This document shows, piece after piece, positions 20,771 through 53,809 of a stretch of 64,000 nt of DNA. Below the pieces are notes generated by a model. The model saw only the letters and a program-made list of their open reading frames with translations. It had not been told where the DNA came from and did no database searches. A program made the translations under genes and the position numbers. Source of the DNA: Eukaryota sp. GEM-RC1 (taxonomy: Eukaryota); the NCBI GenBank assembly GCA_040285855.1, contig JAUFOQ010000016.1:930001-994000 (forward strand). Direction: 5' to 3'. Position 1 is the stretch's first letter; every line of letters begins with the position of its first letter.

Positions 20771-21762
20771 TCTGGTTTTATACTGTTTTTGTACGACAGA
20801 AACTCACCAAATACTACAGATTGATACAGTTTGAGTGAGATAATTCCCTAAAACTCAATTTCAAGCCACCAAGAAGAATATCGGCAATTTCATCTAGTTG
20901 TTGAACTAAATCATTCGAAACTTCTTCGTCTTCTTCAACTTATATGATTACTGATAAATCCCAGAAATTTCATTTAAATTCGTTTTGGTAAAAGAAGAGC
21001 TGATGTCATAGTTCCATCAGCCAATGATGAACTGATTGTTGATGTGATTACCGTGGATGTTTGTAAAAAAATCTCCTTTAAAGAAGCTAAAAATGATGTC
21101 TCCTTTTGACTTTTCAGAACAATTTAAAAAGAACAAACACGATGTTCCCTTTACTGCTCTCAAACATACACAGCACGTTGAGTTCAAATTGTGTGATTTT
21201 GCATTTTCAAATTATGATCGGCTCGTTGTTTTCTCTCTTATATTGAAAAAGTTACTACAAAAAGAATTAACAAAGCAGTTCGATCATAAGTGTTGGATGA
21301 ATCGTATGTGATACCTTCAGTACAAAGGGAAAAGGATATATATATATAAATGAATTATAATGACTATAGTACATGTATGTAACTATACTAATACCTTTGG
21401 CTAAGATAATCTAACAATTCCTGATATGCTCTCGAAAGCTCTTTTTGCTCTTGGTGTTATCTATGTAAAAAAGCTTTTGTGAGATTCGATGGCAATGGTT
21501 GTTGCTTTTATGATAGTGAGATAAGAACAAAACTATTCTGTTCCATAAAGGTTTTTGTATTGATCTTAAATCCGTCTATCGAATAGAACAGACTTTTGAA
21601 GTATTCTGTTGAATGTAGAATCCGTCGCCGACCACCAAGTAGATTTGAAGGAGATAAACCATGTATTATGTATTATGTATTATGTACACTGTAGGATTGA
21701 GTAAAAATGGCGGGAAGCTTTCAAATAAAAGAGTTGAGTTCTGTGCGAAAAAATCCTTCTTC

Positions 21763-23133
<1,371 letters not shown>

Positions 23134-23282
23134 GATGTTATTTGTACTTAATAAATTTTGAATATTTGTTAAGAGTCAGAATTAGTATAGTACACAACTC
23201 CATGAACTGAATGGACAGATGATCTTTTCTTCATTTTATCAGCATTCAATCAAGCTTGGCTAGATCTAAAATTGTTTGGAAT

Positions 23283-24066
23283 TCTTATACGTGTGACAAA
23301 ATGGCCAACATTTTCTTATACGTGTGACAACACAATTCTCTTTTTCTTATACGTGTGACAACTGTCAAGTCCATGAATCCCAACATCCTACATGTTACTC
23401 CATTCCCCAATAATCCACATCAACTTCTTTTTAATTCATTTGATGCTTGTTTCTCGTCATGGCAAACTTATGCTGCTGAACAAGGATTTGCCATCCGAAT
23501 TGAAGGTGGAACGGAAGAACGTGGGCGTTGTTATTTCACTTGTTATGCTTCCGGTAGTTATGTTCAGGAAGGAAATAATAAAAGACCCCGTAAAACAAGA
23601 AAAGCTCAATGTCCTTGGAAAGTATATGTAAAACGAACATCTGCAGGCCAATGACTCACATATCCCAGAGTAAATGGTCACTCTCACCAAATGTTGCAGG
23701 AGCCTTCGACACTTTTCCATCACCGTGTCGTATCCCCAACCCAGAAGAATATATTGGAGTGTCTAAATCCAACTTATCCAGTCAGAAGCGTACTTGCAGA
23801 TTTGAACAGGCTAGATGGTCCCACAAATCTCACACGCAAAGATGTATCGAATCACCGTCAAGCGGTCCGCAAAGAAATTATTGGTGAAGATTCCTGTATT
23901 GAGGGCGCTGCACGAGAATATGGGGATCGCTACTATATTCAGGTGAACGAAGACCCATTTTGTGTCTTAATCTCTTTTTTTATACCTATAAAGTCTATCT
24001 ATATCAGTTGTTTACATTGGTATCCATTTCTTTGATTTTGGAATTCAAATTCTGTCACACGTATAG
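23283..24066 (+). mobile_element. Internally deleted Mutator-like (MULE) element with a FAR1/WRKY-type DNA-binding domain fragment
   Basis: ORF 23355-23654 reads YAAEQGFAIRI...YFTC...RKTRKAQCPWKVYV and continues in 23691-24035. TATACGTGTGACA occurs three times at the left (about 23286-23361) and inverted once at the right (about 24053-24065). Confidence 0.65.
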
Positions 24067-24231: not shown

Positions 24232-24328
24232 TCGAGTCATGACATTTCATGACGTGACACGACTTGAAGTCACGTCGACTTAAGGTTTTTGTAACGACGT
24301 CATGACGTCGTCGTGACTTTTGAGTCTG
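24232..24328. repeat. GTCATGAC/GACGTC palindrome-rich cluster, probable MITE end
   Basis: Repeated CATGAC, CACGAC, GTCGAC and GACGTC motifs ending in GAGTCTG. Confidence 0.4.
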
Positions 24329-24897
24329 TTTATTTATACTCCTTTTTTCTAAATGATGATGGGTTATTTGTTATAATTGGGTGCTACTTTACTCCTTCTC
24401 TTTTATAAAAATGATAGGTAGACTCATATTGTGGTCACTAGAAGATAATAAGATCAGTGCTGCTTCAAATTAATAACTTGGAAAGGCCTTCTTTTATGTT
24501 TTGTCATGTTTAGTTTGGTGGTGAAACCCATAAATTTTTAGTCATTGTCGCTTTTAAATAAATTTAGTTCTCACCATGACTTTCGAAAGTTTTCATAAGT
24601 CGAGTTAGTTTGTATTGTTCTGCATTTTTGTATTTTCTGTATATTTTTCAGGGAGTGGCTGTTTTTCCCAAGTACATGTACATGTACTGTACATGTATGC
24701 CTTAAATTACATTCTCAATAATTGTTAAATTTCAATTTGACCCAAACGCCAACTAATGTTCTGTGATCGCGAACATAAATCCGAGTCACTAAAATGTTTG
24801 TTAAGACAAATAGAAAACATATCAAAACTAACTACAGTTAGCTTTTTGTAAACTTTTTGTCGAAAGTGAGTGAAACAACTTCTTGGTGATTGATCTG

Positions 24898-25923: not shown

Positions 25924-26940
25924 CTAATAAGTAATTGCTTTCTTAGGACATCCATCGACACACCTCAAACACCCCATACACTCAGTGTTTCTCAACTTCA
26001 GAACCACCTTCCCATCATCTCTAGCCTTGCCTATCTGCTCACTAAGTAAAATTCCCATATCACAGTCAGCATCGCATTTGCGACAAGAAATACACTTGGT
26101 AGTATCAACAGTTAGCTTGTACATTGAAGTTTTCCCAATCAATGAATACATCGCTCCAAAGGGACAAACCCAACGACAGAAGGATCTGTTTCCAAGAAGA
26201 GGCATAATGAACAAAGAAAGAAAATACAAATCTGGAACAAAATGCCAATGGCGGGCCACAGCAGATGAAAACTCCTTGGAAAATAAAGGAACGTACATGA
26301 CAAAAATCATTAGAAACATATACATCATCACAAAGTACTTGATAAATCGGAGTCGATCCCATCCCTTACCTCTCTTAGTACTTCCTCTAAAAGCAAACCC
26401 AACTGTTTCCCTAGTAGAGACGCATGTACAGATCAAGCCACAGTCCAATCGTCTTCCAAAAACAATCATTAAAGAACCCCAAATCCAGAAGGTCAATGAC
26501 CCTGGGGAGTGAACCCGGGGTATCCAGCGTCCTTGTCAAGGAAGGGAAAGGGGACAGTGTAACCAAGGCTGGAGGCAATGATGGGGATGATTAGGTATAG
26601 GGATACTGTACCAAAAACAACAATGTACATTCTCATTAAATCAGAGCGGATGTTGGTGGAGTACAGTCGCCAGATTCCAAAAAAGAAACATCACTATTAC
26701 TTCAGTGAATGATGATAAAAGGAAAGTATCAATATGATACGAAGAGTCACGGAGATAGCTGTTGTTGATGTAGGCGGCACATATCCAGAATATTCCAATG
26801 TAGGAGAGGAAAACTACAAGCCGTTTGTTTTTGATCTTGTATCGAGATCTAGGTAATTTCTTTGACAACTTTCGGGACGGTGAATCATTGTTGTTGTTGA
26901 TTAAGAGATCATGTTCCATTGTCGTAGATTCCTTCTGCAT
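25924..26940 (-). CDS. Membrane 4Fe-4S-binding protein (NapH/MauN/YccM-like polyferredoxin; frameshifts near 26500-26660)
   Basis: TM helices, RSFCRWVCPFGA, CISCRKCDADC and CMGCLRCVDGCP. Confidence 0.8.
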
Positions 26941-28065: not shown

Positions 28066-28758
28066 TACAACATTTGTAACTACAACATTTGGTGATACAA
28101 CATTTGTAACTACAACATTTGGTGATACAACATTTGTAACTACAACATTTGTAACTACAACATTTGGTGATACAACATTTGTAACTACAACATTTGTAAC
28201 TACAACATTTGGTGATACAACATTTGTAACTACAACATTTGTATCTATTTTTAGTATTATTTGTTTGTTTTTACAATTTCATAGTTTGTAGAAAGGTTAC
28301 CTTATTGGGTGCCGAATAAACATCTCACATTTGTAACTACAACATTTGTAACTACAACATTTGGTGATACAACATTTGTAACTACAACATTTGGTGATAC
28401 AACATTTGTAACTACAAAATTTGTAACTACAACATTTGGTGATACAACATTTGTAACTACAACATTTGTAACTACAACATTTGGTGATACAACATTTGGT
28501 GATACAACATTTGTAACTACAACATTTGTATCTATTTTTAGTATTATTTGTTTGTTTTTACAATTTCATAGTTTGTAGAAAGGTTACCTTATTGGGTGCC
28601 GAATAAACATCTCACATTTGTAACTACAACATTTGTAACTACAACATTTGGTGATACAACATTTGTAACTACAACATTTGGTGATACAACATTTGTAACT
28701 ACAAAATTTGTAACTACAACATTTGGTGATACAACATTTGTAACTACAACATTTGTAA
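28066..28758. repeat. 15-bp minisatellite (TACAACATTTGTAAC / TACAACATTTGGTGA) in three blocks separated by two identical approximately 86-bp spacers; probable subterminal repeat arm of a DNA transposon
   Basis: Seen directly. Further copies occur at 59982-60038 (unit) and 12902-12980 (spacer). Confidence 0.9.
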
Positions 28759-29410
28759 TGAAAGTGTCGTATGTGTAATGAATTGTTGACCTAGACATTG
28801 ATATTTTTTTTAAACACAACCAATAAAATATACAACCTCAGTTTATCAAACTTAACTAACACTACTATATCCCCCCATCACCCTCGCAAACATCACAGCC
28901 AACGAAAACGACTCCTTATATCCAATCCCACAACAATACTCACACATCACTTCACGAAATTCATCCAATATTCCCAAACAATGTTCATCACACATCACTT
29001 CATCATTTAAATCTAATATCGACATAACAAAAGTATTGGTCAACGACAACACATTAAAGTACTTGTCCCTATCATTCAAATGAAAACTCAAAATTTCCGC
29101 CATCAATAAATTTAAATCTTTTAACAACTGAAGTTTCAAACTCATATGTGATTGACAGTCTGATGTTGTACCACTTTGGTTCCAATGCAGTGGTACAATA
29201 TCGTGGACAATTGTAAGAACCTTTGTTTCTGTCTGCATGGAAATAGTACGAGTATTGTTCAAGTTGTTTTCAAAGTCTGTCTGAAGACCAAGTGAATTTG
29301 GTAATCTGTTGACAGATTCAGTGACCTCATGTTGTGCACTATTTTTGATAATTTCAAACTAGGTAAATTCAAATTTGGTTTGAGAGTATTTCGAGACAAT
29401 AGATTTGGTC

Positions 29411-31299
29411 TCAATTTAGGCAAAGTAGTGACTGTTGTTTTTTCAGTTTTGGCACAGGTTTGTTAAAAATTAAATCAGAATTGATGGCACTTACACTTTG
29501 ATTATTGAGACACTCATCGTCATCATTCACAACAAAATCATTCATACTAGACGACGCATCGTCATCATCATCAGTTTCATCATCTCCACTATCACTTCCA
29601 GAGACAACAACTTCATTATCGAATAATTCTAAAACTGAATCAGAAGTGTTATTCAAATTTTCAATTTTTGGAACATCCTTTTCCACCAAATCTTCCTCAA
29701 TTTCTTCATTGACTGGACCAAGAACATCAACAGTTTCTGTACTTTGACCAACACTAGAAATAATATTGGACGAAAATTCATCAAAAGTTTTCAACACAGA
29801 AGGCCAATTTCTAACAATTCTTTCATCTTCTAATGGCAAAGGATAAAGAGGTTTAGTAACCGGTCGACAGGGGTGAAAAGTGGAATAATACCACTGATAA
29901 AGATCAATTCTTGGTTTGGGAAATCTTGAAGAAATATCTAAAATTTTAATTGAGTTCCAGTTCTTCACCCTACTCAATGTAACGTACAATTGGGCATATT
30001 CCCAAAAATTTAATGAAACTTCAATTCCTTCAATTGTTAGACCCTGAGATCTATGGACTGTTATTGCCCAACAAGGACGAAGAGGATATTGCAATCGGGA
30101 TGCTATAATTACAGGCTTTTTCTTCTCATTCAACACCTCAATTTCAAATTTAGTCGGAATAATTTTGATTGGTTCTTCGTCCCTCCCGAATCTTACATTA
30201 ATGAAATGTGAAGTTTCTGAAAAATCAATAATTTTGCCTTTTGACCCATTTACTAGGCCCAGATCTGGTTTGTTTTGGGTAAACATTACCAAACCCCCGA
30301 CAACACAGTGAAATTTTTGTTCGGCAAAATCGTTTAGCCTACTTGATAATTTTTTTACATTTAAATCAACAGCCTTTTCCATTTGTTCCTCATTAGGCTT
30401 ACCAAATGCCCAACTTTTAACAATTTCTGATTTAATTAAGTTTTCATTGAACTTATCGAGGGAATGAAATTCAACATTTTCATTCCCTTGTTCACATAAT
30501 AATTCAAATTGCTTTAAATTTTCGTCGGCGACATCCTTGTTTCTAGCAAATAATTTGGTTGGACTTTCAATATTTTTGGCTAATGACTTATGTTTCAATA
30601 AAATATGTTTCATATAGTCATCAAAAAGTCCGAGACGTATTTCATTCAAAAAATTATAAAAATTGACATCACCTTGTTGTCGGATACTTCCAGATAATTC
30701 AATAAAATTTAAATTCAAGTCCTTCCAAGACTGTGATGAAAACGTAAAGTCTGAAAGTTGAAGAACAGTCCGTGTGTTTGAATCAGATTTTACAATTGGT
30801 GCAAGTTGCAAAAAATCACCAAATATTACAACTTGAAGTCCACCAAATGGTAACTGAGACTTCAGTAAATCTTTAAATATATCAGAGGCTCTGTTGAATA
30901 ATTCAGCAGTCAACATTGAAATTTCATCAATAACAAGCATTGAATTTCGAGCACTAATAGTTCGTAAAACAGACTTAACACTCGAAGGCATAGAGCGAAT
31001 GACATCAGATATTGGTTTTTCATTACGGATAAAATTATAACCAAAGAGAGAGTGTAGTGTTTGACCACCAAAGACAGTGGAAGCAACACCAGTAGTAGCA
31101 GTAAAAAGACATGGCCATTGGGTCTCATTAGCTTGGAACCCGCATTAGACCACCACTGTTTAAGACAGTACAGTAGGTAAGACTTGCCCGATCCGGCACC
31201 ACCAGTAATGAAGAAATTTCGACGCTTAGAAGGTCTTGCATGAGTAATAGCTTGGAAGACCTGAGCCTGTTCGTCTGTAAGTGTGTTGATAATGGACAT
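29411..31299 (-). CDS. PIF1-family SF1B DNA helicase (frameshifted near 31000-31130)
   Basis: GGAGSGKS, IDEISM, FGGLQVVIFGDFLQL, RQQGD, YPLRPCWAITVHRSQGLTI and QLYVTLSRV. Confidence 0.9.
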
Positions 31300-31756
31300 T
31301 GAGTGTGTGAAGTGGTGATGTTTAAGATGCAGATTGTGCAGGGAAACTTTCCTTTCACTATAATTTATATATCTACCTCCACTTTATGGAAAATGCTGGT
31401 CGTACATAATTCTTAGAAGCTTGTTCTATCATGATGAGCTTTCTATCGTCTCATATGTCAAATTATATGTCTATGTAAAACGTGATGTTGGTGTTGGGAT
31501 CGATCTTGATGAAATAGAGCAATGTATCGTGTCATTGGACTACTTTCGAGCACTCTAACTCATATCCGAGTCTTTTAAAGTCACGCCCTTGATCTTACAA
31601 ATCAAACATGAGATCTCTCTCCTAGCCCTCGTTGATGCCATTCTATCTGAAGACAAGGTACCTTCTGCTTCTGTTTCACTAAATCCAAGGTAATTCCTCC
31701 TCCTCCCTACACAGCTGATGTTCCTCGTAGAAGTAGAACACCCCGATTTGTGTTCT

Positions 31757-32560
31757 CTATATGTCGAATGTAATCTCCTTATTGCTATTTGTTATAAAAT
31801 ACAACTGTTCTTTATACTTAAGCAATGAATCAATGAAACTCACAAACTCCTTGTCACAATCTGCATCACATTCACAAATCTCATTCACATCAAACAAGTT
31901 GAACAACGAAGACACCCTTTTAACAACAACGGACATGTCAACAAACTCCTCATCTTGACTGTTCTCACACATAAGTATTATATCTGTCAATGTTTCAGAA
32001 CATCCTGTAAACTCTTGGAATACTTCAGTAAGTAACAATTCCCTACATTCATCACCATTCAAGGATAGTAGCAAAACTGTCAATACTTTAACTAGACACT
32101 GTCGATCATTAATACTCCAAAGAAATTCGGAAATATCATTGAGAAACAATATTCTTTCACACTTTGTGATCAACAACGTGTTATACATTGCTTGTAAAGA
32201 ATTTGCAAGTACAAATAACAGGACAGAAAAACAATTTAGCATTCCCTCAACATCTACACTACAACAACAACAACAAACAATTTTGAATACCACGTTCCAC
32301 AATGGAATCGACGGCATTGTCTTACATTTCGCTAGTATATGTGAGCAGATTGAAAGTAAAGGAGATAAAGAAGTTAAGTCATCTTCAGGATTTGGATGAA
32401 AGCTCATACGATGTATGTGAGACAAAAGTGATGTCAATTTGTCAAGAGAGTTAAGTTCTCCTATGGCCATGCATTTGATACACCCACATGCTTGTATTTG
32501 TTGAATGAGATATGTTTCAAAGAATGTTGCCAAACAATCTTGTAAGATATTGTTGGTCAT
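31757..32560 (-). CDS. Hypothetical Cys-rich helical protein
   Basis: 267-aa ORF with no recognisable motif. Confidence 0.4.
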   Translation of the reverse strand: MTNNILQDCLATFFETYLIQQIQACGCIKCMAIGELNSLDKLTSLLSHIHRMSFHPNPEDDLTSLSPLLSICSHILAKCKTMPSIPLWNVVFKIVCCCCCSVDVEGMLNCFSVLLFVLANSLQAMYNTLLITKCERILFLNDISEFLWSINDRQCLVKVLTVLLLSLNGDECRELLLTEVFQEFTGCSETLTDIILMCENSQDEEFVDMSVVVKRVSSLFNLFDVNEICECDADCDKEFVSFIDSLLKYKEQLYFITNSNKEITFDI

Positions 32561-32602
32561 TGAATTGATAGTGAAGGAAAATATTTTTCCGGCAAAAATC
32601 CA

Positions 32603-33381
32603 ATGTCAGTTGTATGTCTTTATTCACTCTCATTTCAGTCTTCAGATGATGCAACGTCTATGTCTGTCAATTATAACAAGAAACGACGCTCTAACGCTTT
32701 CCGAAGAAAGAATATGAACAAGCACCAGGATGTCTATAACGTCTTTAGTTATACATCGACAAAGGTGGATGGTAAAAGTGTTCAGCTCGGTCCCAATGGG
32801 GATTATATTCTAATTTCACGACCTCGTGATAATTCAACAGATGGACTTTCTATAAGTACCAACAATGATGAATTCCTCTCAGACTTGGTACAGTCTAAGG
32901 AAGACTTTTTGAGAATATTGTTCACTTTATTAATTCTAGAACTCAGTATTTAGCTTCCCAAGGCGCAAAAGTACCAGACATTTCTTCACGTTTTAAGAAA
33001 GTGTATGGTATGAATGCTGAAGAAAACGAAGATCTTTCTGAGTTTTATTCAATTGCTCCTAATGTTATTCATGAAAGAACTCATATTGTTAAGAAAAAGA
33101 ACAAGCACCTTAAAGAAGCTAAAGTTGTGAGCAAAGAAGCCACAACTCCAGAACCTCTCACAAAGTCCTCTCGTAACTCTCCCACCGAATCCGCTCCTTC
33201 CACTCCTACTAAATACGATGAAATTCAATCCTCCCTAGGATCACTTGTTTCCAAGACTTTGGGACATCAGTGTGGAAAGGAAAAGCCTATCTCAGGCAGC
33301 GATAAGAGAAAGAAGTTAGAGATAAAGAAGTTAAATGTAGGACCTGTTTTGCAGAAACAACTGGCAAGTAGAACAAAATAA
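32603..33381 (+). CDS. Hypothetical protein (two ORFs, probably frameshifted)
   Basis: Adjacent ORFs 32603-32953 and 33001-33381. Confidence 0.35.
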
Positions 33382-33625
33382 AGAAGATGTTGTTTATTGA
33401 ATGAGATAAGTGTGCATGGTCTAGTATAGGACTCCGAAGATGTGAAGTGAAGTCTAAGGTCTAGGTTCACTTTTCTTTCATACATGAATCCACTGATCTA
33501 ATTCTAGATAACTGAACCTCAACCTAAGAAGATTGTTGACGTTGACAGCGTTGTCAAGACTGGTCATGAGGCAGTGACCACTCTTTTAGCAAACTCTAAG
33601 CATTCACTTGACGAGAAGGAACTTG

Positions 33626-33873
33626 AACTCATCTTTAGTGCAGTTGCTTCCGCCCTTCGTGAACCCCAGTAATTGAAAGAGCTATTCGAATTGCTGGTGA
33701 TACTACTCGTGATACTGCTAGCCTCATACACCATATGCGATTTAAAACTCATCTTTAGTGCAGTTGCTTCCGCCCTTCGTGAAACCACCACCCCAGTAAT
33801 TGAAAGAGCTATTCGAATTGCTGGTGATACTACTCGTGATACTGCTAGCCTCATACACCATATGCGATTTAAA
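33626..33873. repeat. Tandem duplication of an approximately 121-128-bp unit
   Basis: ACTCATCTTTAGTGCAGTTGC...CATATGCGATTTAAA occurs twice, with a small deletion in copy 1. Confidence 0.9.
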
Positions 33874-34430
33874 TTTGTTTTTATAGATCATTATTGTAGT
33901 TTTCTTTGTTTAGATATCAATAAAGCATCACGTTCTTCTTTTGTTTCAAGTCTCTTCCTTGTTAACACGAAATCAACATATACGTTCTAGTTCAATGCAT
34001 TGTCAATGTTGTGATACACAAGAGCATTGAAAATAACATTGTTGATGTATTAATTAATGAATGATGTCAAGTAAGTAAGTACAAAAATGTTGTATATGAA
34101 GTGTAGGAGATATCCGAAGACAGAAAAGATGTCTGCTATCTGTAGACAAACAAGACAAGACTCCAAAAATGAATACTGCAATTTCACTTTTCTTCTCTCT
34201 TGACATGCGTATGATCCTCCATCTTTCTAACTATAGACATTGTGATGATGCCAAAAGTAAGTTTTGGTCACGATATGTGCTTGCTGCCACGTATATCTAT
34301 GAGAAGTGACCTCTTTACATAGATGGCAATTCCGCTCTTCTTGTCAATTTGTCTCCTGCACTCGACAAGTGGGCAAGATGAGTTGGGTTGTCATCTGGTG
34401 TATCGTGGTTGCACTTATTGCTTTGCTTTG

Positions 34431-34520
34431 CGTCCACATCCGCCATTTCTCAATTCCGCCATCCAGATACTGTTTCCATTGCACGGTCACGGGATTTGGA
34501 TGGTGGGTTGAAGGAATGTG
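34431..34520 (+). ncRNA. Solo copy of the conserved stem-loop motif (type A)
   Basis: CCGCCATCCAGAT-ACTGT-TTCCATTGC-ACGGT-CACGGG-ATTTGGATGGTGG, homologous to the 141-bp unit. Confidence 0.55.
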
Positions 34521-35062
34521 TTGTTCCGTGGTTTTCTCTTTATCCACTTCTTCTGTGATGATGCTCCTTCAGTTATCTCCTCTGCTGAAAACACTGGATT
34601 TCTGACTGATTCTTGCTGAATGCCTCTTGCATTGTATGTTTCGTAGATCCGCTTAACGTTGCATTGAACCACTTGAAGATTGTCCTCTGAGAAGTATGGT
34701 TGTCTTGTGATTTGTCTTGGCCATACTGTATAACAACTTTCTTCGTTCCCTCCGTTTCATTTCTCTCTGCTCTTCTTCTCAAAGTCACAATGGGAACATC
34801 TTGAGCAATAGCTTGGTGGTATATCTTCGTTCCTCTGTACAATTCAGAAGCAGAGTAGATCAACAGATGTAAATGGTCTTTATGTCATATACATCACCTC
34901 TTCAAATCCTGCCACCCCCGCTTCTTTGGGAACAAAATTCGTTGGTGAAAAACAGAAAATGTGACTTTCAATATCAATTAAGTTGGGGCGATATCCAGAT
35001 CAATCACTGTCCTGTTAATAGACAGAATTTTGCATAAAGTAATAAGGCCTTTCATACTGGGA

Positions 35063-35867
35063 CTATCTAAACTCAACTGAGCCCGAAACCCTGCAATGGA
35101 GTCAGTCTCGAGTTGAGTTAGATAAGGATAGGGAGGCTGCATCATCAAAGCTACGGCAGTGGATGTTGAAAATCTACTGTTTATCCACAAGTGCAGTTGT
35201 ATTTGAGTTACAATAAGTTTTAATTACAACTGATTCAGTTCCAAAAACTTTCAAGGCTTGTTTCTATGAAGAGAAATTTTTTAGACGTAGACGCCTTACC
35301 CATTATTCAAGAAAAGAACGAAGTGAACAAAACTTGGTCCACAGATTTGCTCTCCAATATGGTGATCCAGATTTTCACATGAATCAAAAACTTGCCATTG
35401 GAACGTTGAATATAGACAACGACGTTGTCGAAACTCTTCATACAGAATGTTTTTGATTTAAACTTTTCGTTACTAAAAAATTGTTTTAGTATCTTCAAGT
35501 AAATCTGTAGTTCTCATCATGAAAAGAACCAGTCACAAGATAATTAATAAAGTTAAGGCTCATTGTTCTGGGCCATTTGTACTCAACCCAGCAACAGACT
35601 GATTAGTGAACAAATTTTTGAACACGTTTATGTTGGTAAGATTTCTTAGGTTTGTGGCAGCCGACACTTAAATTCTTAGTGTGGGAACTTTCTCAAAAAC
35701 TCAACCTTCAAGTGTATGATCGTACGAATAATCAATGGCGACTTCCACGAATTAAGTGTCAAGACCTGATTTTGCCTAACCCTTCTTCTCTTTCCAGTTT
35801 GACTAAAACAGTTAACGAGGCTCTTGCCATTCCTGTTAAAACTACTACTCCTTCAATTTCTACTTCA
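35063..35867. other. Mosaic of short scrambled fragments of the downstream helicase/Fanzor block
   Basis: Eight segments of about 21-108 nt match the 48.2-48.5, 43.3, 45.6, 45.7, 52.8, 44.5, 39.9 and 36.4 kb regions. Confidence 0.85.
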
Positions 35868-36039
35868 CTGGTTCCTTTATTAATCCTGTATTAGTTAGTT
35901 ATAGTAAAACATTAATCCTCGTGAATGACAAATTCATCACGGAATGAATAAACCCACCCTATTGTATTGATTGAAAGTCAAAAATGGAATCTTTGTTGTA
36001 ATAATAGACTAGGACATAAATTTTCCTCTCTGCACAAAC

Positions 36040-37738
36040 ATGTCAACATCATTCCGTGTCCGCCAACGTTTTCCCAAACAACAGATGCAACTAGACTTCG
36101 TAAATGACATTCCTGCGGAAGTTACAGATGTTGAAATTGTCATCGTCCAAGACACTGCGGGCGACTTCTTCATTGTCGTAGTGTATAATGGACATATTCA
36201 ATACCATTTCAATCTCGTTCTTGTAACATCAGACGTTGCACAAACAAAGTTCCTTTTCAGCTTAGCATCGTCCTCTAATCTTCGTGCAATCACTCCCCTT
36301 GAAGATACACAGTGTATTAGCGACGTGATATCTTTCATCGTAAAAACCACCCTCTCATCTCATAACCTGATTGTATCCCCTTCTTCTCTTTCCAGTTTGA
36401 CTAAAACAGTTAACGAGGCTCTTGCTATTCCTGTTAAAACTACTACTCCTTCAATTTCTACTTCATCTGATTGTTGTTATGTCTATTCAGTTATCCATTT
36501 TATTATACGTCACATTGAACGTTTCTTCGAACTCAATGTAAATCATTTCAAAGAACTAGATTTTGATACTTCTGCTACTCCTCTCTTCAATTGTTTTTAT
36601 ACGAAAGATATTGAAGGTGTTCATGCGCAAATCGCTGACATTTATCCTGTTTTTGCGGCGGGTCAACACGATCCTTTCAATTTCCTTGCCAAACTTTTAA
36701 AAACACTTGACAAGGAATTCCGCACCACCTTGCCATCTTCATCAAATGATGAATTACACTCTTTGTCAAAAATTTGAACCACAGTCTGAATCAGAAGAAA
36801 CTGATACTACAGACTTCCAATATAATGGATATGATTTAGATGAGAAACCATCACCAAAAAAAGTTCAGACTCAGTTAGATGTCAAATCATCACTTCAGCA
36901 AGATTTAGATCAATTGTTGATAACTCAAAAATTAAAGCATTCTTGTGCTGTTAATGCATTTTGTTTCTGTATTAAAACAACAACAAAATGTTCTTGGTGT
37001 GGGACTGATCCGACATCTAAAATTCACTTCGCCTTGGATATTAACCAGGAAAGTATCCAAAGGCGGTATCCTTCTAGACCAACCGATCTCGAATCATTGT
37101 TGCAAGCTCATCTACCTTTTCGAAAAGAAATAATTTGTGCTACTTGTCCTGAACAAAAATCAGAAATTACTGAAACTTTTGCTTCTCTTCCAAAAGCTCT
37201 TATCATTAGACTGACTGGACATCCTCAACCAGTTACTATTTCTTCAAATCTATCACTCTATCTATTCCTGTCTTCTGAAGGACAGATGGGTTCAGAATCG
37301 ATTGAGTTTTCCCCTACCAATGAAATCAACTCACAACTGCCACTTAAGGACATTTACACATTGTCTCATTATCCAACATCAGAAGAATTGTCTGTCTTTG
37401 ACATTTCTAATGAAAATGAAAGAAAGTGTGGGAGTCAGCATTTTGTTAGAGGTAGTGATTGGGAAAGAAGTACCAGTCGAACCTCAACCGCCAAAGTGTC
37501 AACCAAGACCAAAAGTAGTGTTGAAGAAAAATACACATACAGACTGCTGTCTGCGATCTGTCATTACGATTCCCTTGCTGACGGTCACTGTGTGACATAT
37601 GCAAAGGAAAAAGAAGGTTCTTGGTGGTTACATGATACCAATAGTGATTGCAAGAAAGGTGTAGACGAACAGACAGTATTAACTGAGATTTCTTTAAATG
37701 GCTATGTTTTACTTTATCAACATCAATATTTAGAATAA
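36040..37738 (+). CDS. USP / peptidase C19 deubiquitinase-like protein (frameshift near 36770)
   Basis: Cys box SDCCYVYSVIH, GQHDPFNFL, LPKALIIRL, His box HYDSLADGHCVTYAK...WWLHD and GYVLLYQ. Confidence 0.75.
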
Positions 37739-37888
37739 ACGCATAGTAATAAATTGTTCTACATGTATCTAAGAGAAAATAAAAGTGTACACAAAGCGAT
37801 CCTTGTAAATGTAGTTGTGAAGACATGAGAATTCCTTGTTCTATCAGTACAGTATAGTTGTTTACAGCTCCATAATTTTCCCACTCCA

Positions 37889-40800
37889 ATGACTTCTATT
37901 ATACTGCTAACACCCCTCGCCTCGTCCACATCCGCCATTGCTTCATCACATCACCCAAACACTGTTTCCATAGCACGGTCACGGGATATGGATGGTGGGT
38001 TGAAGAAATGTGTGAATACGTGCTTCCCGATGTCGTCTCCGCTTATTCTGTGCTCTATCCTCTCGTCCACATCCGCCATTGCTTCATCACGTCATCCAGA
38101 TACTGTTTCCATAGCACGGTCACGGGATTTGGATGGTGGGTTGAAGAAATGTGTGAATACGTGCTTCCCGATGTCGTCTCCGCTTATTCTGTGCTCTATC
38201 CTCTCGTCCACATCCGCCATTGCTTCATCACGTCATCCAGATACTGTTTCCTTAGCACGGTCACGGGATTTGGATGGTGGGTTGAAGAAATGTGTGAATA
38301 CGTGCTTCCCGATGTCGTCTCCGCTTATTCTGTGCTCTATCCTCTCGTCCACATCCGCCATTGCTTCATCACGTCATCCAGATACTGTTTCCATAGCACG
38401 GTCACGGGATTTGGATGGTGGGTTGAAGAAATGTGTGAATACGTGCTTCCCGATGTCGTCTCCGCTTATTCTGTGCTCTATCCTCTCGTCCACATCCGCC
38501 ATTGCTTCATCACGTCATCCAGATACTGTTTCCATAGCACGGTCACGGGATTTGGATGGTGGGTTGAAGAAATGTGTGAATACGTGCTTCCCGATGTCGT
38601 CTCCGCTTATTCTGTGCTCTATCCTCTCGTCCACATCCGCCATTGCTTCATCACGTCATCCAGATACTGTTTCCATAGCACGGTCACGGGATTTGGATGG
38701 TGGGTTGAAGAAATGTGTGAATACGTGCTTCCCGATGTCGTCTCCGCTTATTCTGTGCTCTATCCTCTCGTCCACATCCGCCATTGCTTCATCACATCAC
38801 CCAAACACTGTTTCCATAGCACGGTCACGGGATTTGGATGGTGGGTTGAAGAAATGTGTGAATACGTGCTTCCCGATGTCGTCTCCGCTTATTCTGTGCT
38901 CTATCCTCTCGTCCACATCATGGAAACGTGATCTCTCTATCGATGGAGACGTTGAGCAGAATCCAGGTCCCCATGATCGTTTACCATCCCCAGAAGTAAA
39001 GAGACCCAGAAGAACTTCTGTGTCACCATCGCCTCCTCCATCTCTGCCAGAAACGCTACCAGAAGAACTGCCAACACAAGAACCGCCAACACAAGAACTG
39101 CCAACAGAAGAAACTCTAACAGAAGAACCGCCAACAGAAGAAACTCAGCTAAAACAAAAGAAACATAATCAAAGAACTAAATACCACATGGGCATATTGC
39201 ATCGTTACTGCCGTATTCCACATGAAACTTTTGCCCATCCAGTGCTAAGATCTGGAAGAACACCTGGTTTCCAAGTTTGTTCATGTATGAATCATGTTTT
39301 TATAGATGAATCCGAAAACTTAACTGATCTCGCTCCAGATGTCATTCCCAATCCAGACAATGAATCACGACGCTCGTTCCTGGCCCAAATTATGCAAGAG
39401 TGTTGCAAACCTGGTGACACGCCAAGTAATTGGAGAATTGAAAATTACATCATGGCCAAACACTATGAATCGGAGTTGATTGAATGTCAACAAGATGCTA
39501 ATCATTACTTGCTCAGTTATGATGGAGCGTTGGAATCCCTCCATAAATATTGGTGTCAATTGTGTGACCCTAATCGAGAATCTACTGTGAGTTTACCGAT
39601 TATGCCTCTTGGATTCAAATATGAGATGCCTCCCCATTGTCCTCAAAAACAACCTTCTTTTCGTGAATCGTTTTGCCTTTTTATTGCTCCATGTCTCTTC
39701 TGCCTTCTTCCTGGTCACAGTTATAATGAATGTCCCTTCCAAACTTTTAGACTTAGTGATGTTTCATTAAGTATCACATCCTTGTATCAAAATATCAACC
39801 CTAAAGTTTTGGTACGTCCTGAGGTTATGCTGGACATTTTATTAACAATGCTCCATCTGCAATTTGTTGTGGAGGAGAAAAAACTCAACCTTCAAGTGTA
39901 TGATCGTACGAATAATCAATTTACTTTGGAAATGTACAAAGAAAACCAAAAAGTGATTGAAAAGTTTGCAAAGTCAAAAGCTACTTATAAACTCAAAATG
40001 TTAATCTTTGATATTGCTCATGTTATTGAATTAATTAAAAAAGAAGCCCCCAAAATACCTGATGTTGATGTCAAAGATTCTGATTTTGAACATACTGACG
40101 ATCCTACAGACGATCCTTTAAATGATGACGGATTTGATGATCTATATAATCAAACTTCTGTTAGTATTATGTGGGATGATTTTAATAATATCAGAGATTC
40201 GTCCTACACTTCTCAATTACTTTCAAGATTTTTTAACTTTTGTCATTTTCTCGAGCACTATACTTTTGTGGATACAGATGAAGAAAGCCGCATTGTCGAA
40301 ATTAAAGACCCTGAAACTAAACAAGTTGTACAACGGAAAGAAGTTTACCGACATCAGTTTACTGTATATCAAGATTTTTTCGAAAACAAAATTGAAACTA
40401 TGAGTATGCTCATGTTCCAACTGTCATTTTGTGCCCATTACCATTATGAACAAAAAAAAGAAAACAAAGATCTCTCTTTAATGTCTTTCTGTTTCCAGGC
40501 AATGGAATACTTAGTCTCATTGTCATGGTTGGCGTCAAATCATAGTGATTACAAGATGTTGTTAGATCATTATCTTCAATGGAGACGACCTCCCCGCTAT
40601 GTTTACAATTTCCCAAGCACTGTGACTTCACCAGAGGAACCAACGTGTACATTTACATCAATTGATTTTCCTAAAGTATGTTCTAAATTAGCACATTTGA
40701 AATCTTATGTCCGCGAAAGTGATTTACTAACACAAATTCTTCAAATTTTGACACTAAATGAACAGTGGAATAATACAGTTGACAGTAATGACGCCTACTT

Positions 40801-43800
40801 CCACTTGGTGTTTTCTTGCTTTCAGTTGATTTCAAAAGCACGTAACTGCCGTATTGCATTTGTTAATGAAGGAAAAGACACTTTTTATCAATTGTTTCGT
40901 GTTGTTGGTCAAAATCATGTCAAAGACAACAATATTATTCCGTTTATTGTTTCTGGTCAAACAGGTTCCGGGAAATCTGTCTTAACTGGTGTTGTTGTGG
41001 TTATGGTTACTTTGAAACCAATCATTGTGTGTCAACCTAGAGTTCTACCAGCCACAAAACTCTCCGATTTTATCAATGATTTATGTCATAGTGATTTTCC
41101 TCTGTCTGGATACCGAACAGGCAACAAGAATACGAACATTCCAGTACATTCACCAAGATTTATCGAAGTTCAAACCGCTGCCTTCACTTCTAAATTTCTG
41201 ACAAATAATAGCAATCTGTCTCGATTTGCAACTATCATGGTGGATGAAGTTCATGAAAGAAAATGTGACATTGACATTTTATTAGCACAAATGAGAATAA
41301 TTTCCCAAACTGATTCAAAATTGAGAGTGGTAATCTGTTCGGCAACTATGGACAAACCTAATCCTTGTTTTAATTACCTTACACAAGGAAATTATTTAGA
41401 TACCGAACCCTCCTATACTATCCATGCAGCTGGAAGAACCAATCCACTGATTGTCCTTGATGTGAATTTTGTTCGTCAAAATGAATTTCATTATAGTCCC
41501 TTAATATCAAAACTTGTGATAACTCCGATTTTTGAACCTACACTTCAACAGGTTTTCAACGATCATTTTATTGATATTTACACTTATTTTGTCTTCAATG
41601 TGAACTCATACTACGACTATTTCACTCAACACTGTAATCCTCTTTCATATAAAAGTATCAATTTCAGAGCGTTAGCCCGACTATGTCTCTGTTATTACTC
41701 CCTGTCTCAGAAACTTTTTCAGTTTGAACCAGAATGTACAGGATTTACTTTGCTCGTGTTTCTTCCTGGAAGTCCAGAAATTACAACTCTCAGTAATATT
41801 ATTGAGAATGAGTATGAGAGTCAGAAAAAAGTGGATCTGGTGGTCTATACATCCCAGCTTCTTCTGAGAAGCCAGGTGTGTATCCGTTGTATTCAAGTCT
41901 GGATTCAGTCCAACAAGATGCAGCTGTGGCTAAACCAGCGAAAAAACAATTTAAAATTGTCATTGCTACCAATATAGCAGAATCTTCCTTGACTATTGAT
42001 GGGGTCAAATTTGTCATTGACTGTGGTTTGTCAAAGCAAACTGATGCAGATGACCTTCTCGACACTCATCATTGCTCCATTGCTTCTTTGGACCAGCGCT
42101 CTGGTCGTGCTGGAAGAAATTCTCCTGGACTTTCGTTACGTCTTGTGCAGACAAACTTATATCCGAATGGAACTTCGAGATTGCATTTCGACGAACCAGA
42201 AATTCTAAATTGTTCGTTGATTGAGCCATTGTTAACAATCAAACAGATCGCTGAAAATCCTCAATTTTTAATCAGTAATCGTCCAAATCCCCCTGAATTT
42301 TTTATCAGTCAACTGCCTGATGTTCCTTCTAGCGAGAACATCATGTCTTCGGTTGATGTTCTTTTCCGCACTAATGTTCTTTCAAAAAACCAACTAAATT
42401 CTCCCCTTACTTATCTCGGAAAGATTTGCACCAATGCCAATATTTCATTCTACAACTTCAAGTTTTTATTTTTCTGTTTAACAAACAATTACCTGTGTCC
42501 TGGATTGATTCGTCTTGCGGGTATCAATTCTATGTCGTTCATTCGTTGCTCTCGTACAACTTTTATGTCATTTTACGATTTGTATACCTTTTCACAATCG
42601 ATTCCTTTACTCAAACAACTCTCTACTATTGAAGAATCTAAAGTTGTACGTTCAGACATGTTTTTCAAATTATCCTTGGTTCATTACATTTTATGTGGCG
42701 AATTTATTAAAAATCTGGATATTGTCCCAACACGTGATCAAACCCTTAATGATCAAGCCCTTAAGAATTTATCTAAATTAGTTTTTTTGGAAAAAACTAG
42801 AGCGATATTTAAATGAACTAAGATCTTTAGTTTCACGTTTCGTGGATATGGAAGATTCTAATACTCATCTCAAAAATCAATTAATATCATTGGAAGGCAT
42901 TGCTCTAAAACTTGTCAATTTCATATCAAATCCTTCTGAAGTTACACTCAATAAGTTTCGAAATGAATCAACAATCTTCTCTTCTCTTTTTGAATCTCCA
43001 AATTAAACGACGTCTCTCTTTCAAGCCATTGTGGCTTCTTATCCCAATAAGTCATTCCATTCAACTGTAGTAGACAATTCATTCTCAGTTAGGTTGAAGT
43101 TGGAAGGTTATGTCAATGGAAAAAATTTAACAGCTTTATAAAGAAATTGTTTGATGAACAAAAAATTGTCAAATCTTCCAAATCTCTAAAAGTTAATGAC
43201 AGTGATGATGACAGTACTCGTTCAGAGACATTATGTTCAAAAGTTAAAATTACTTCAGATCTAGCTCCAGGTGAAACCGAAAGCACTGTTGTTATGTTGC
43301 ATTCAGAGAATACAACTGAAATTGAAAATCTACTGTTTGTCAACAAGTGCCGTGGAACTCTTTATTCATTAAAAAATTTTTCTCTTACGTTCCATCTTGA
43401 TTGGTATAGATTCATTATCAAATCACGATTCAATTTATCAATGGCATTGAAAGTTGTCAATGACCCAGAATTTTGGAACATGTACAACCAATTGTTACAG
43501 TGGGGTAATATCGTACATTTGCATATACCAAGAAATTCTATTAAATTAACTTTCGACATTATGTCAAGTCCTTGTAGTGATTTGACTCAATACACTCGTA
43601 TTGATAATGAGTGGTCCAAGGAAGTTAAATGTGCCAAATCACTGTTCCCTGTACCTACAGATCTAGGTTATCATAATGGTATTTCTGTTGGTGATAAGTT
43701 TCCACAATTCTTGTCTCATATTCCTTCTTCTTTTCAATACTTGTTCATCGTATGGCTCATGAACTTCAATATCAATTTGGTTTCGGAAATGGCAAAGCCA

Positions 43801-46031
43801 TCTATCAAGGTTGGTACACCAATGCATTGTCAAGATTCGAGGTTCAAACAATTAATTGCATACAGTAATGAGCTGGATATTCATGGATCTTTTGAGGTAA
43901 AACGTGTCTGGAATGTTTACTGGCCTTATCATGAGTTACCAATCGAATCCACCTTTGGATGTATCAATCGATTACGTATTTTGGTATATTTAACGGAACA
44001 AGGTGAGGTTCCCATAACTGTGTTGAAATCGTGGTATGACAACATTATTATTCTTGATTTCAACTTACTGAAAAGTAACAGTCCACCAGTTACCGTGGAT
44101 TATGTGAATGGAAGGAAACATCATTTCCAGTTACTAAATTTCCAAGTCAATGATGAACAGGACCTGTTGATGTGCTTTGATCCTGCGTGTCCTTTATGTG
44201 CATCATCATGTACTACACTTAATGAAGTAGTAAATTCTGAAATTACCTTAGCCCAACACAAGGTTGAAGAACCTATGATCCCCGAAAACGCTGACCTTCC
44301 TGAACCCATGATTAGTGAAACTACTGCATTGCCCCAGTCACCAGTAGCTACAAGTACTTTGGATTTGTCATCTTGGACTAAGTCGTATTGTACTGCCTCT
44401 TCTCATACTGCTAAATATTTAGGACAAAATGTTCAAATCTTAAATTTTACACGTGAAGAAATGAGAACTTTCTATGTTGTTTTTTCATTTGAATCAAAAA
44501 TTGCCATTGGAACGTTGAATATAGACAACGACGTTGTCGAAACTCTCCATACAGAATTTTTTTCTGCTATTACTCCTACTCCTACTCCTGTGTTGAATGT
44601 TACATTACGATTTGTAGTCTACAACATTGATAAAGAACTCCGAAGGTTCAGTCGCAGTATTGATGATGATAGACCACAGTGTAAACCATTTGACAATCAA
44701 TTGACTATGTTTGCACTTCATCATCAATTGCTTTACCAGGCCATACTGATTGCTTTTGAAGGGCCCATATTTATGATTCAATACAAGCCAAAAACAGACA
44801 AACGAAAGACTATTCGACAAGTATTACCGTTGCCGTTGGCCAGAGACAGTTTTGATTCTCAATGTATTGACATGGCTGCTGCAAAAATTGTTTTGTTGTC
44901 GCAACGAAGACTCTGTTGTTGATCATTTTTGTGCAGGAAGATGAAAAAATTGTGTTAATTGTTCAGAATTATCAACATTAATGGATTTAAACATGTCTGA
45001 AATTGATCGTGACGAAGAATTCAAAAGTTTGAAGTGCTATGACGATTTCGTTCTAGTTGTCGGCACTTGTTCCATCCGAAAGTTAGACTTGTATGAAAGG
45101 GAGCTGCTTGGTGAACAACCTGTATGGGAATTTTGCTCCTGTCACAAAGATGACAGAATTATAGATGCAGTGTATGTTAAGCATTATGACACAATAATGT
45201 ACATCACGGAATTTGGGTTCTGTGTTGGTTTCGGTTTGAAACTACCAAAGAAACAGATTCAATTTATTATTGATTGTTCAAGTGGTGAGTTAACAGGTCA
45301 ACTGTTAAAAATCGATTTTTGCAATGATTTAAATTCTTTCATTGTTCTGAAAAGGATGGAACACTGTTAATGCTTTCAGCATTATCTGTGATTGGTATTT
45401 CTGGTGTACCATTAGAAGTTCATGATGTTCGCTCTTGTGATTCAAAAAATATTTACGAACAACGAAGTCTTGAACTACATGCTTTAACTGTTCAATCGAC
45501 TCAACAAGTTCAACAAGTTGAGATTCCTGTTGTTGAAGAAAGTGCTCATCCCATCGACATTGATACGACGAAAAGACTTCAGTTTCTTTCATCTAGATGG
45601 AGTGTTGATGAAAAAATCAACAAGGTGAAGCATTTGTTGACTATATTTGAGTTACAAAAGTTGTAATTACAACTGATTCAGTTGAAAAAGTAAGGAAACT
45701 TTCAAGGCTTGTTTCTGAGGTTGCTTTTAAAGTTGTGACACTAGAGGGTGGAAAACCACGAAAGATTACATCAAGTCTGAAAATATTCGATGAACAGACT
45801 GATCCTGTTTTATTGATCAGTACTACTCAATTAGCGGTTAACCATTCTGTTCGGGCTGATCTTTGTATAATCTTTGATCTGCCAAATGATGCCAGACATG
45901 TTTACAATTTGTATGAACATAATCAAAAAATCGTTGTCTTTTACGATTCTATCCGTGATAAGGACAAAAAGCAAAATTTGGAAAAACACTTCTTTAGACC
46001 CTCAGGATTGCAAGCACTTGATTTTATATAG
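37889..46031 (+). CDS. Very large polyprotein: repeat leader, 2A, CCHC knuckle, DEAH/RHA helicase and a long unknown C-terminal region (probably one ORF broken by indels)
   Basis: CLFCLLPGHSYNEC; GQTGSGKS, QPRVLPA, DEVHER, SATM, FLPG, ATNIAESSLTIDGV and QRSGRAGR. Abutting ORFs continue to 46031. The last one (LLISTTQLA...IIFDLP) resembles a degenerate helicase C-domain. Confidence 0.75.
37921..38919 (+). repeat. Seven near-identical tandem 141-bp units, each containing a long stem-loop; in frame (47 aa)
   Basis: Units start at 37921, 38062, 38203, 38344, 38485, 38626 and 38767, with a partial unit at 38908. Confidence 0.97.
38921..38971 (+). other. 2A/StopGo ribosomal-skip peptide WKRDLSIDGDVEQNPG|P
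   Basis: Exact match to D(V/I)ExNPGP, preceded by DL..DG. Confidence 0.9.
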
Positions 46032-46534
46032 TCTTTCAATAATTCATTGATGTTTTTTTATTATGTAGAACAATATAATAATTATAAGTCTTTATTACAA
46101 TTTTTCTTTATTTATCAATCAACGAAGAAGTTGATTGATTGGGTTTATCTGGTCTAAATTTATAATTTATACCATGATTTTTCACATAAACTATGCTACC
46201 ACATCTACACTGAATATGTAACAAATTGGTCTGGTTTTATATGTCACATTTTCTGACATACTAAATCTGTAACAAATTTCTGTCAGATTTCAGGTGGATG
46301 AAATTCACGGATTGTTCTGTGTGTAATAACTATGTACCAAAACATTGGTATTCAGACTACGTCTGACACATTTCATTGAACATTGTAATATTGTACAAAT
46401 ATTGTTTATTTGATGTGTTATTCTTATATGTTATACAAAATTATAAATACATCTATATTGTACTATTTATTCTCTATCACTATCAATTCATTTTTTTAAA
46501 GTCTTTTTGATTCCAAAAGCACTTGCAGTTGTTT

Positions 46535-48012
46535 TCATTCTTCGTTTTCCTGTTTTTTCCCTAAAACTTCATTTTCGTCTTTTGTCTTTAACGATTTGTT
46601 TTCAAATTTTGTTCTTGAACAATCAATTACATTTTGTTCTGTCACCAAGTCAGGTTGTACACTCTGAAGTAGATCATACATAACAAGACATAGATTTTTT
46701 CTTGATCTGTTAGTGTATAATTTTGTCTGATTTTGTTCCTGACGTGCATCAACCATTAATCCTTGTAAAATTAAAGTAACATTCAAACAGACAATCCATC
46801 CACAGATAAGAGACGATGTTGACTGTGCAAAAGGTATATAGTAGTCCACCTTATACTCTGGTAATCTTGCAAACAGATTTGTTTCCCCACATCCATAAAC
46901 AGTTCTAAAAGGATTAACGATTAATTCAGTGGTTAATGAATAATCCAAAGAATCATAAATATTGAATAGTAAAACATTTGCTTCATTTAGAAACAATTCA
47001 ATAAGAATCCAATGACCAGATCCTGCATCACCAGGAACATGTTCTTTCACCAAACATAATGGGGCAAGAATTCTTTTCCTGATTTTAGTGTATCGACAAT
47101 AGCCTTACCAGAATGTAAGGCATAGCATATTGGATCACCAACCAACTGTTGAGTTTCTTGAGATTGCAGGAACTTGTACCTACTTGATTTAAATTTTTGG
47201 AATGCAAGCATCACAATGAAATCAAGTTCAGAACTCAACAAGAGTTGTGTTTTACCTTCCCTATCATCCTTTGTCAACATTTTTTCAATATCACAAAATC
47301 CAGATTTTAATTTTGAATTTATGTAAAACTGATCACTGATTAAATCTACAGAAAGAATCAACGGGTTACGTTGTTTTTTGCGTTTCATAGGTTTAGATAA
47401 ATTAGCATTATCAATGACCGGAACAGGAACTATTTCAGATGGTTCAGAGAAAATAGAATGAATATGATTGATTGCGAAGTTATCAATACGACGTTTTGGT
47501 GAAGGAAAAACGACTTGAGATGGAGTATCGTTAATGCGAGTATTGTCACAAGCATGTAAAAGAGTAGGAGACTGAGGCTGAGGAGGAGGAGGGGAACGAG
47601 CAATTGTAACTCGTTTAACGTCTTTGAGTAGATCCTTAAGATGATTTAGAGTTGAAGTTGTTGATTGAAGTGGAAGAGATATGTCACGCTTCTCATAAGA
47701 ACCATCAAAAGGAAAGAGATGAACAGTTTCTAGATCAACATCTAGCACAATGGCAACGGCTGCTTTGTAGTTGAGGCAAAAATCCATGGTACCCTTTTTA
47801 AGATCATCTGGTAAGTCAGATGTTGACACTTCCGTTATGTGGATGGATTTAGTTCTCCATGAATTGTATGTTCCATAAGGAAGAAGAACAAGTGACAAAT
47901 TAACTGCATGCTTATCAGCAAGCTTTACAACAAGTTTCATATATGTTTTGATGGTACGGGAACGACTTTCTTGTTCAGAAGTATTTCTGAGTTTGAAAAT
48001 TGAGTAGGACAT
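46535..48012 (-). CDS. Ulp1/C48-like SUMO/Ubl protease (frameshift near 47055)
   Basis: GHWILIEL...YDSL...QSTSSLICGWIV gives the H-D-Q-C catalytic order. Confidence 0.65.
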
Positions 48013-48159
48013 GGGAAATTCTGGTATAGACTTTATTACAGATTTCGTTTTTTAACACGTGAATTCCCACACACATGTCCATTACAGTCTGTGTGGGATT
48101 TCATTTTCCTTCCTCCTACAGTATAAATGTCGTTTGTTCTGCATCCAAACAGATGTTGT

Positions 48160-48535
48160 CCGCCATTCTGTCCTTATCTGACTCAACTTGTGACTGTTTC
48201 CATTGCACGGTTTCGGGCTCAGTTGAGTTTAGATAAGGACAGTTCTTTCCCTCCACTGCCTCCGCTTCTGTTGCTTCTCCCTCTACTGCCGTTGCTTTCC
48301 CCACTTCTGTTGCTTCGATAATGCCGCCATTCTGTCCTTATCTGACTCAACTTGTGACTGTTTCCATTGCACGGTTTCGGGCTCAGTTGAGTTTAGATAA
48401 GGACAGTTCTTTCCCTCCACTGCCTCCGCTTCTGTTGCTTCGATAATGCCGCCATTCTGTCCTTATCTGACTCAACTTGTGACTGACTCCATTGCACGGT
48501 TTCGGGCTCAGTTGAGTTTAGAAAAGGACAGTTCA
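48160..48535 (+). repeat. Three tandem copies of stem-loop motif type B
   Basis: Copies at 48160, 48324 and 48449: CTGTCCTTATCTGACTCAACT ... ACTG(TT/AC)TCCATTGCACGGTTTCGGG ... AGTTGAGTTTAGATAAGGACAG. Confidence 0.92.
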
Positions 48536-53630: not shown

Positions 53631-53635
53631 ATCTA

Positions 53636-53770: not shown

Positions 53771-53809
53771 CAACTGTTAATTTATCAGTGAAGAGCGCAT
53801 CAACATGTT

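Follow-up and report, generated by a model that had tools for sequence, protein, structure and literature searches.

How did a short stretch of DNA between two repeat modules come to hold pieces of several mobile-element genes in scrambled order, and does it serve any purpose? The window analysed here (the whole stretch of 64,000 nucleotides) is eukaryotic, with tubulins, ERCC1, CPSF3-like and eRF3-like genes (the last two being labels that we assume from translations recognised by eye), short introns and a GC content of 37%. A block of repeat-family open reading frames (ORFs) occupies about 28.0–53.8 kb, with host genes on both sides. It runs from a PIF1 helicase through a 2.6-kb gap (33381–36040), which contains the mosaic, to a UCH/DEAD/H helicase module and then a Ulp1/exonuclease/Fanzor module. 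The four flanking ORFs tested are all singletons, whereas the element ORFs are multicopy: their relatives are proteins of Eukaryota sp. GEM-RC1, in clusters of 14 (helicase), 26 (Fanzor), 19 (PIF1) and 16, 11 and 9 (others) members. Among the ORFs scanned in 28066–53780, none was recognised as a transposase, an integrase or a reverse transcriptase, yet every module tested is multicopy. Eukaryota sp. GEM-RC1 is a skoliomonad metamonad, with a genome described as 48% repetitive (PMC11316075).

To the left of the gap (28066–33381) lie a 15-bp satellite and the repeat-family PIF1 helicase, on the minus strand; none of the mosaic pieces with an assigned donor comes from the PIF1 gene. To its right, on the plus strand (36040–46031), is the first donor family, composed of an ORF starting at 36040, a UCH protease, seven 141-bp hairpin repeats, a 2A-like motif, the DEAD/H helicase (the cluster of 14), a 542-aa ORF (the cluster of nine) and a helicase-C-like ORF. 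The second donor-family module (46499–53780) comprises a minus-strand ORF, type-B hairpin repeats, a 2A-like motif, a Ulp1 protease, a PolB-type exonuclease, a Fanzor1 gene of subfamily A and a structured 3′ region, with clusters of 16, 11 and 26 members. The helicase-C-like ORF (45651–46031) has a weak Helicase_C match (E = 8e-4). The 542-aa ORF (43294–44922) finds matches of only 0.80 in the ESM Atlas, one of them with Plavaka in 13% of its members, which makes Plavaka a weak lead. Members of these element families rearrange: in the protein P0001, the C-terminal part of the 542-aa ORF is fused to the helicase.

The mosaic itself (35063–35867) consists of seven pieces of 32–108 nt, identified by BLASTN and pairwise alignment against the window, which match mobile-element sequence at 79–100% identity and stand out of order. 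All fragment matches listed in a preliminary description of this DNA were recovered in this way, as was the non-colinear order that it reported. Its list of pieces needs two amendments: two of its fragments (35200–35240 and 35245–35265) are one piece, because a 1-nt insertion and an 8-nt deletion explain the split, and an eighth piece at 34431–34533, outside its range, had been missed. The seven pieces cover 517 of the 805 nt, including 387 of the 391 nt of a left block, and leave 288 nt with no donor.

Piece 1 (35064–35163) is an inverted type-B hairpin unit with its upstream flank, cut off at the 3′ side of the hairpin and lying on the minus strand; it is 84–85% identical to 48399–48301 and 48522–48425, and its first 68 nt are 90% identical to 48235–48168. 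It holds the hairpin core with one mismatch, and both the minus-strand fold and the alignment support its identity as a hairpin; its donor was probably a sister subfamily. The other pieces are all on the plus strand. Piece 2 (35166–35197) is from the N-terminal part of the 542-aa ORF (29 of 32 nt identical to 43322–43353). Piece 3 (35200–35265) is part of the helicase-C-like ORF (84% to 45644–45716, with the two indels above), and piece 4 (35265–35372) spans 36 codons of a Fanzor1 gene of subfamily B, 79% identical to 52779–52886 in the adjacent subfamily A copy. Piece 5 (35372–35454) is an internal part of the 542-aa ORF (94% to 44482–44563). There follow 240 nt (35455–35694) with no confident match in the window and no coding-like character; coding-like signal was seen in none of 16 windows over 35455–35779. 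Piece 6 (35695–35736) is 42 nt of the 2A–DEAD/H helicase ORF 4.2 kb away (42 of 42 nt identical to 39879–39920), and piece 7 (35780–35867) is 88 nt of ORF 36040–36777, 0.6 kb downstream (87 of 88 nt identical to 36378–36465, with one synonymous change). The eighth piece (34431–34533) is a single type-A hairpin unit, 87% identical to 38064–38166 among others, and folds at z = −4.3. Further left, a plus-strand coding-like fragment with an internal 127-nt tandem duplication (33516–33890) has no assigned donor.

Chance does not account for this density. The mosaic matches seven distinct donor regions; among sliding 805-nt windows (n = 158), 110 have no donor match and 29 have one. Two sliding windows contain five donor regions, both overlapping the mosaic, and the best one away from it, at the 15-bp satellite near 28 kb, contains four. 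Triplet-shuffled copies of the mosaic gave no match in 98 cases out of 100 and one match in the remaining two. The mosaic is real and unusually dense, and shuffling does not reproduce it. We also considered a chimeric gene. Several pieces share a frame, but there is a frame shift in piece 3 and no continuous ORF runs across the mosaic; because stops stand between the pieces, this reading was rejected.

The preliminary description had the pieces sampled from the adjacent block. This holds at most for pieces 6 and 7, and at least two of the others fit copies elsewhere better. Piece 4 agrees with the subfamily B protein P0073 at 35 of 36 residues, compared with 28 of 36 for the adjacent Fanzor. 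Its identity is 31–35 of 36 to the 10 of 15 B proteins that cover the region (five do not) and 28–29 of 36 to the five A proteins that cover it, and it carries the subfamily B state at all six fixed A/B differences. The piece keeps its frame, with the translation previously quoted, and 16 of its 23 nucleotide differences from the local Fanzor copy fall at third codon positions. Its earlier attribution to a sister copy is borne out and can be made more specific: a search with the mosaic's own frame identified a second Fanzor subfamily, made up of P0073 and the P0074 cluster of 14, and on sequence similarity the source of piece 4 is this subfamily, elsewhere in the genome. Piece 5 is identical over 20 of 20 residues to P0089, encoded on a different contig, which alone among eight covering proteins has its variant. 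Piece 2 carries four amino-acid changes over 11 codons, which are in none of five covering sister proteins, and the variant in piece 6 occurs in two of six sister proteins, including one identical to the local ORF.

The mosaic thus mixes remote and probably local templates, because pieces 4 and 5 fit other copies and pieces 6 and 7 are near-exact to their neighbour. The two probable local-template pieces stand at the end of the mosaic nearest their source. Local donors are intact in their ORFs and the remote donor proteins exist, indicating that donors were copied, not moved. Every donor that could be assigned is an ORF or a hairpin 5′ of one; all are repeats, and none is a host gene of the window.

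Whether the mosaic places the helicase and Fanzor modules in a single element family, as had been proposed, is a separate matter. It provides no evidence of kinship between them, because the Fanzor piece is from the other subfamily, not the neighbouring one, and repair capture can mix unrelated repeats. Better evidence of kinship is the 19-nt hairpin core, followed by a 2A-like motif, that both modules carry. Clustering by locus tag among 87 listed family members (at most 15 members each being listed for the clusters of 16, 19 and 26) gave nine close pairs (within 15 tags) against 7.0 expected; the positive control, exonuclease and Fanzor, which are neighbours in the window and a single protein in P0107, had no excess either, so that the count speaks neither for nor against linkage.

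The joins are close to blunt. With the local copies as proxy donors, so that microhomology is an estimate, the four joins at which left-block pieces abut have 2-nt gaps (two) or 1-nt overlaps (two), and none of them has long homology to these proxies. Small indels and substitutions gather near the joins, and the longest repeat inside the mosaic, of 10 nt, lies away from them. No common motif was seen by eye beside the donor sites in eight proxy donor flanks. No poly(A) was found at the mosaic.

We propose that the mosaic is filler DNA, a complex templated insertion that error-prone repair left behind after a chromosome broke between two repeat modules. We consider this reading rather likely; it is the best explanation and matches one of the two options offered in the preliminary description. 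We favour it because the anatomy fits such insertions (the pieces are scrambled, the joins are near-blunt, the donors have stayed where they were, and two or more pieces fit copies other than the neighbour better), and because the metamonads studied retain alternative end-joining to a varying extent. The pieces, their order, the joins and the mixed donors are observed; the break itself, the polymerase involved and how many events took place are what we infer. Complex insertions are described as containing several fragments from local or distant loci, with 0–20 nt of microhomology (PMC11724301), and as a 'molecular patchwork', with segments that differ in origin and with unassignable bases (PMC12426944); long-read examples of distant templates are given in PMC8034613. 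According to PMC8516963, the metamonads studied do without Ku/NHEJ and DNA-PKcs and some have full or partial alternative end-joining, skoliomonads not being among the taxa in the part of that study that bears on this point; the same study proposes transcript-templated repair in metamonads.

In such a repair, a broken end would prime short rounds of synthesis on any template at hand, or capture short loose fragments, before being rejoined. Pieces 6 and 7 would probably have been copied in cis from the adjoining helicase module, and the left-hand pieces in trans from other copies of abundant repeats (the donor families form clusters of 9–26 members). The mosaic may have formed in one event or in several, and the break could be due either to transposition or to the Fanzor nuclease.

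Like the complex templated insertions presented in PMC11724301 and PMC12426944, the mosaic has short segments of mixed origin, local and distant, retained donors, unassignable bases and repetitive donors; its microhomology, as estimated with the proxy donors, is zero to a few nucleotides. It differs in that it stands in a natural protist genome, not at an induced break, and in that its segments are longer, mostly co-oriented and, where assigned, all from mobile elements. At 32–108 nt, they exceed typical Pol theta inserts (<25 bp, as given in PMC12426944), which lowers the case for a Pol theta subtype but not for MMBIR or fragment capture. That every assigned piece is a repeat also counts against the repair reading, but the donorless 288 nt and the repeat-rich genome temper this. 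Orientation is a third point: seven of the eight matched pieces point the same way as the genes they derive from (P = 0.07), where DNA capture would be expected to give random orientation; counting the coding-like piece post hoc, the figure is eight of nine (P = 0.04).

The same bias is what an RNA template would produce. A reverse-transcribing polymerase (Pol theta or the reverse transcriptase of a retroelement) would have used a break or nick as its primer and jumped serially between element transcripts, with the inverted piece arising by hairpin fold-back. The sense orientation of the pieces, their near-blunt joins and the restriction of assigned donors to ORFs or their 5′ hairpins all agree with this, and serial template jumping by non-LTR reverse transcriptases has been described (PMC8857657, PMC8594491). 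However, the bias is not significant for the eight matched pieces, no piece spans an intron, so that splicing gives no signal, and there is no poly(A) or target-site duplication (TSD); no reverse transcriptase was found among 30 ORFs scanned in the window, and no assigned piece derives from a host mRNA. We therefore regard RNA templating as unlikely. Less probable still is that the mosaic is part of a non-autonomous derivative element, formed by Helitron- or Pack-type capture, or arose by deletion from an element with the same order of pieces at another site. Rearrangement within the families, as in P0001, would make such a product conceivable, and Fanzor1 genes are recorded in Helitron, MuDR and other transposons (PMC3627910). 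Yet searches for terminal inverted repeats (TIRs) and TSDs at the mosaic returned only shuffle-level scores, and the pieces come from different subfamilies and copies. A search with the 79-aa frame of the mosaic yielded only single-donor proteins (four matches among 12 candidates of 140–2,000 aa), and a junction peptide, which would mark a second copy of the mosaic, occurs in none of 248 proteins, a weak result given that gene calling has probably passed the mosaic over. An artefact of assembly or polishing in a repeat-rich long-read assembly is the least probable of the readings. Probable homopolymer frameshifts in the element ORFs and the host eRF3-like gene do point to residual errors, but mis-polishing does not reorder sequence, and a chimeric read would not join seven pieces of 30–110 nt from unlinked copies with private changes. 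The host genes on either side, alpha-tubulin and the CPSF3-like gene among them, are intact. If the window derives from an assembly such as the one reported for Eukaryota sp. GEM-RC1, it was built from long reads of a ligation library at 119x; the published account of the sequencing mentions no amplification step (PMC11316075).

The remaining alternatives assign the mosaic a function, as did the second option of the preliminary description, a fragment archive that could template silencing or guide RNAs. CRISPR arrays and the omegaRNA guides of TnpB and Fanzor set short pieces of mobile DNA in a row beside the gene of an RNA-guided nuclease, and the mosaic resembles them to this extent. It differs from them in lacking repeats, an even piece length and any copy of the Fanzor 3′ end. 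The Fanzor 3′ end and putative omegaRNA region found no match in the gap (local score 21, against shuffled maxima of 27–30). We therefore find no support for a CRISPR-like or Fanzor guide array, because no repeat or scaffold separates the pieces, their lengths are uneven (32–108 nt) and the Fanzor 3′ end is not matched. PiRNA clusters and siRNA trap loci are gene-poor stretches rich in fragments of several transposon families. The mosaic shares these traits, but spans only about 0.8–2.6 kb and has pieces of 30–110 nt with neither element ends nor TSDs. It could in principle be a silencing 'trap' or memory locus, which would gather fragments of active elements and yield, by transcription, small RNAs directed at several element families. 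Its assigned pieces indeed represent only mobile-element families, from two modules and two Fanzor subfamilies, and are longer than small RNAs. However, the pieces vary in length with no scaffold between them, the whole strand folds no clearly better than shuffles (z = −1.7, 2 of 20 as good), whole-element insertions are absent, as are TSDs, and other gaps between genes in the window (at 12897, 21376 and 59982) likewise contain single scraps of repeat. We give this reading the same low probability as the derivative element. Slightly less probable again is a combined reading, in which breaks, possibly cut by Fanzor1, were patched with copies of element transcripts, and the patches were then retained as a transcribed, heritable small-RNA memory directed at several families at once; this would be a counterpart of CRISPR arrays or piRNA clusters that is built by repair and free of repeats.

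The mosaic is most likely an ordinary class of repair product, and probably has no function. As a repair scar, it would be a natural record of how breaks are mended in a lineage reported to lack Ku-dependent end joining. One scar alone is of modest interest; transcribed silencing patches, if true, would matter far more. A genome-wide tally of mosaics, covering orientation, introns and junctions, would tell DNA from RNA templates and would bear on the transcript-templated repair proposed for metamonads (PMC8516963). Single scraps of the 27.9–28.6 kb region are present in other intergenic gaps of the window (12897–12979, 84 nt at 87%; 21376–21407, 32 nt at 91%), and short-fragment insertion may therefore be common in this genome.

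The neighbouring elements, with their 2A-like motif, hairpins, Ulp1 protease, exonuclease and Fanzor1, look more novel than the mosaic; no title on these elements or on this mosaic was found in the literature searched, nor was the 2A/Ulp1/exonuclease/Fanzor1 architecture. Across 48446–53630, the 2A-like motif, Ulp1 protease, exonuclease and Fanzor1 seem to make up a single long reading unit, interrupted by frameshifts that are probably sequencing errors, and P0107 (1,473 aa) contains the 2A-like motif, the exonuclease and Fanzor in a single protein. The Fanzor donor gene matches Pfam PF07282 (E = 2.7e-8), and its PDB sequence matches include SpuFz1 (E = 1e-13), PpFz1 (7e-8) and GtFz1 (0.018), all Fanzor1; neither Fanzor2 nor TnpB is among the six PDB matches at E ≤ 1. 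The gene thus appears closer to Fanzor1 than to Fanzor2 or TnpB. The sister proteins P0020, P0026 and P0027 have D161, E442, TS445 and RD540, with a D-to-TS spacing of 283, slightly outside the published Fanzor1 motif, D-X(125,275)-[TS][TS]-XX-C4 zinc finger-X(5,50)-RD (PMC3627910). Judged by its sister copies, the module shares the RuvC-type D/E/D residues and, but for this spacing, the TS–zinc finger–RD motif with the Fanzor1-carrying transposons described there; it differs in its tandem hairpins, 2A-like motif, Ulp1 protease and PolB-type exonuclease before Fanzor. No transposase, TIR or TSD was identified for it in the window. Just past the Fanzor stop, 53630–53775 folds better than shuffled sequence (z = −2.7, 1 of 200 as good) and is a candidate omegaRNA or element end. 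Homologues of the local Fanzor ORF were found in none of 1,437 candidates among longer proteins; a Fanzor query of viral contigs gave eight pattern matches and a subfamily B query of metagenome contigs gave 46, none of which was confirmed.

The two different tandem hairpin repeats (37921–38919 and 48160–48538) share an invariant 19-nt core, which has 12 matches in the window against 0.04 expected. Each array continues in frame into the 2A-like motif. In the enclosing stem, two pairs are changed on both sides among seven distinct rows, which are few and related sequences, and an invariant complementarity between loop and bulge, in a structure drawn by eye, could form a pseudoknot. The repeats are a candidate new structured RNA or single-stranded DNA signal. 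HDV-like and twister ribozymes were considered and rejected, as a P1 partner and a catalytic C were not apparent and Rfam gave no match. Over 28000–56000, Rfam returned a single sub-threshold match (DUF805b, 22 bits against 35.6) and nothing on the hairpins or the mosaic. The core had no match in viral contigs, and the hairpin pattern none in metagenome contigs.

The 15-bp satellite at the PIF1 end (28066–28758) recurs as a short array at 59982–60037 and resembles, inverted, 45643–45675 of the helicase-C-like ORF, the donor stretch of piece 3. Short palindromic or duplicated intergenic motifs occur at 97–135, 348–366, 23282–23361, 24294–24311 and 24671–24688. Frameshifts at homopolymer runs affect the eRF3-like host gene (56311–56330) and the PIF1, helicase and Fanzor ORFs. 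They are probably residual long-read errors, and the elements may be intact. Finally, 25924–26535 encodes a single-copy 4Fe-4S dicluster membrane-type protein, possibly of bacterial type.
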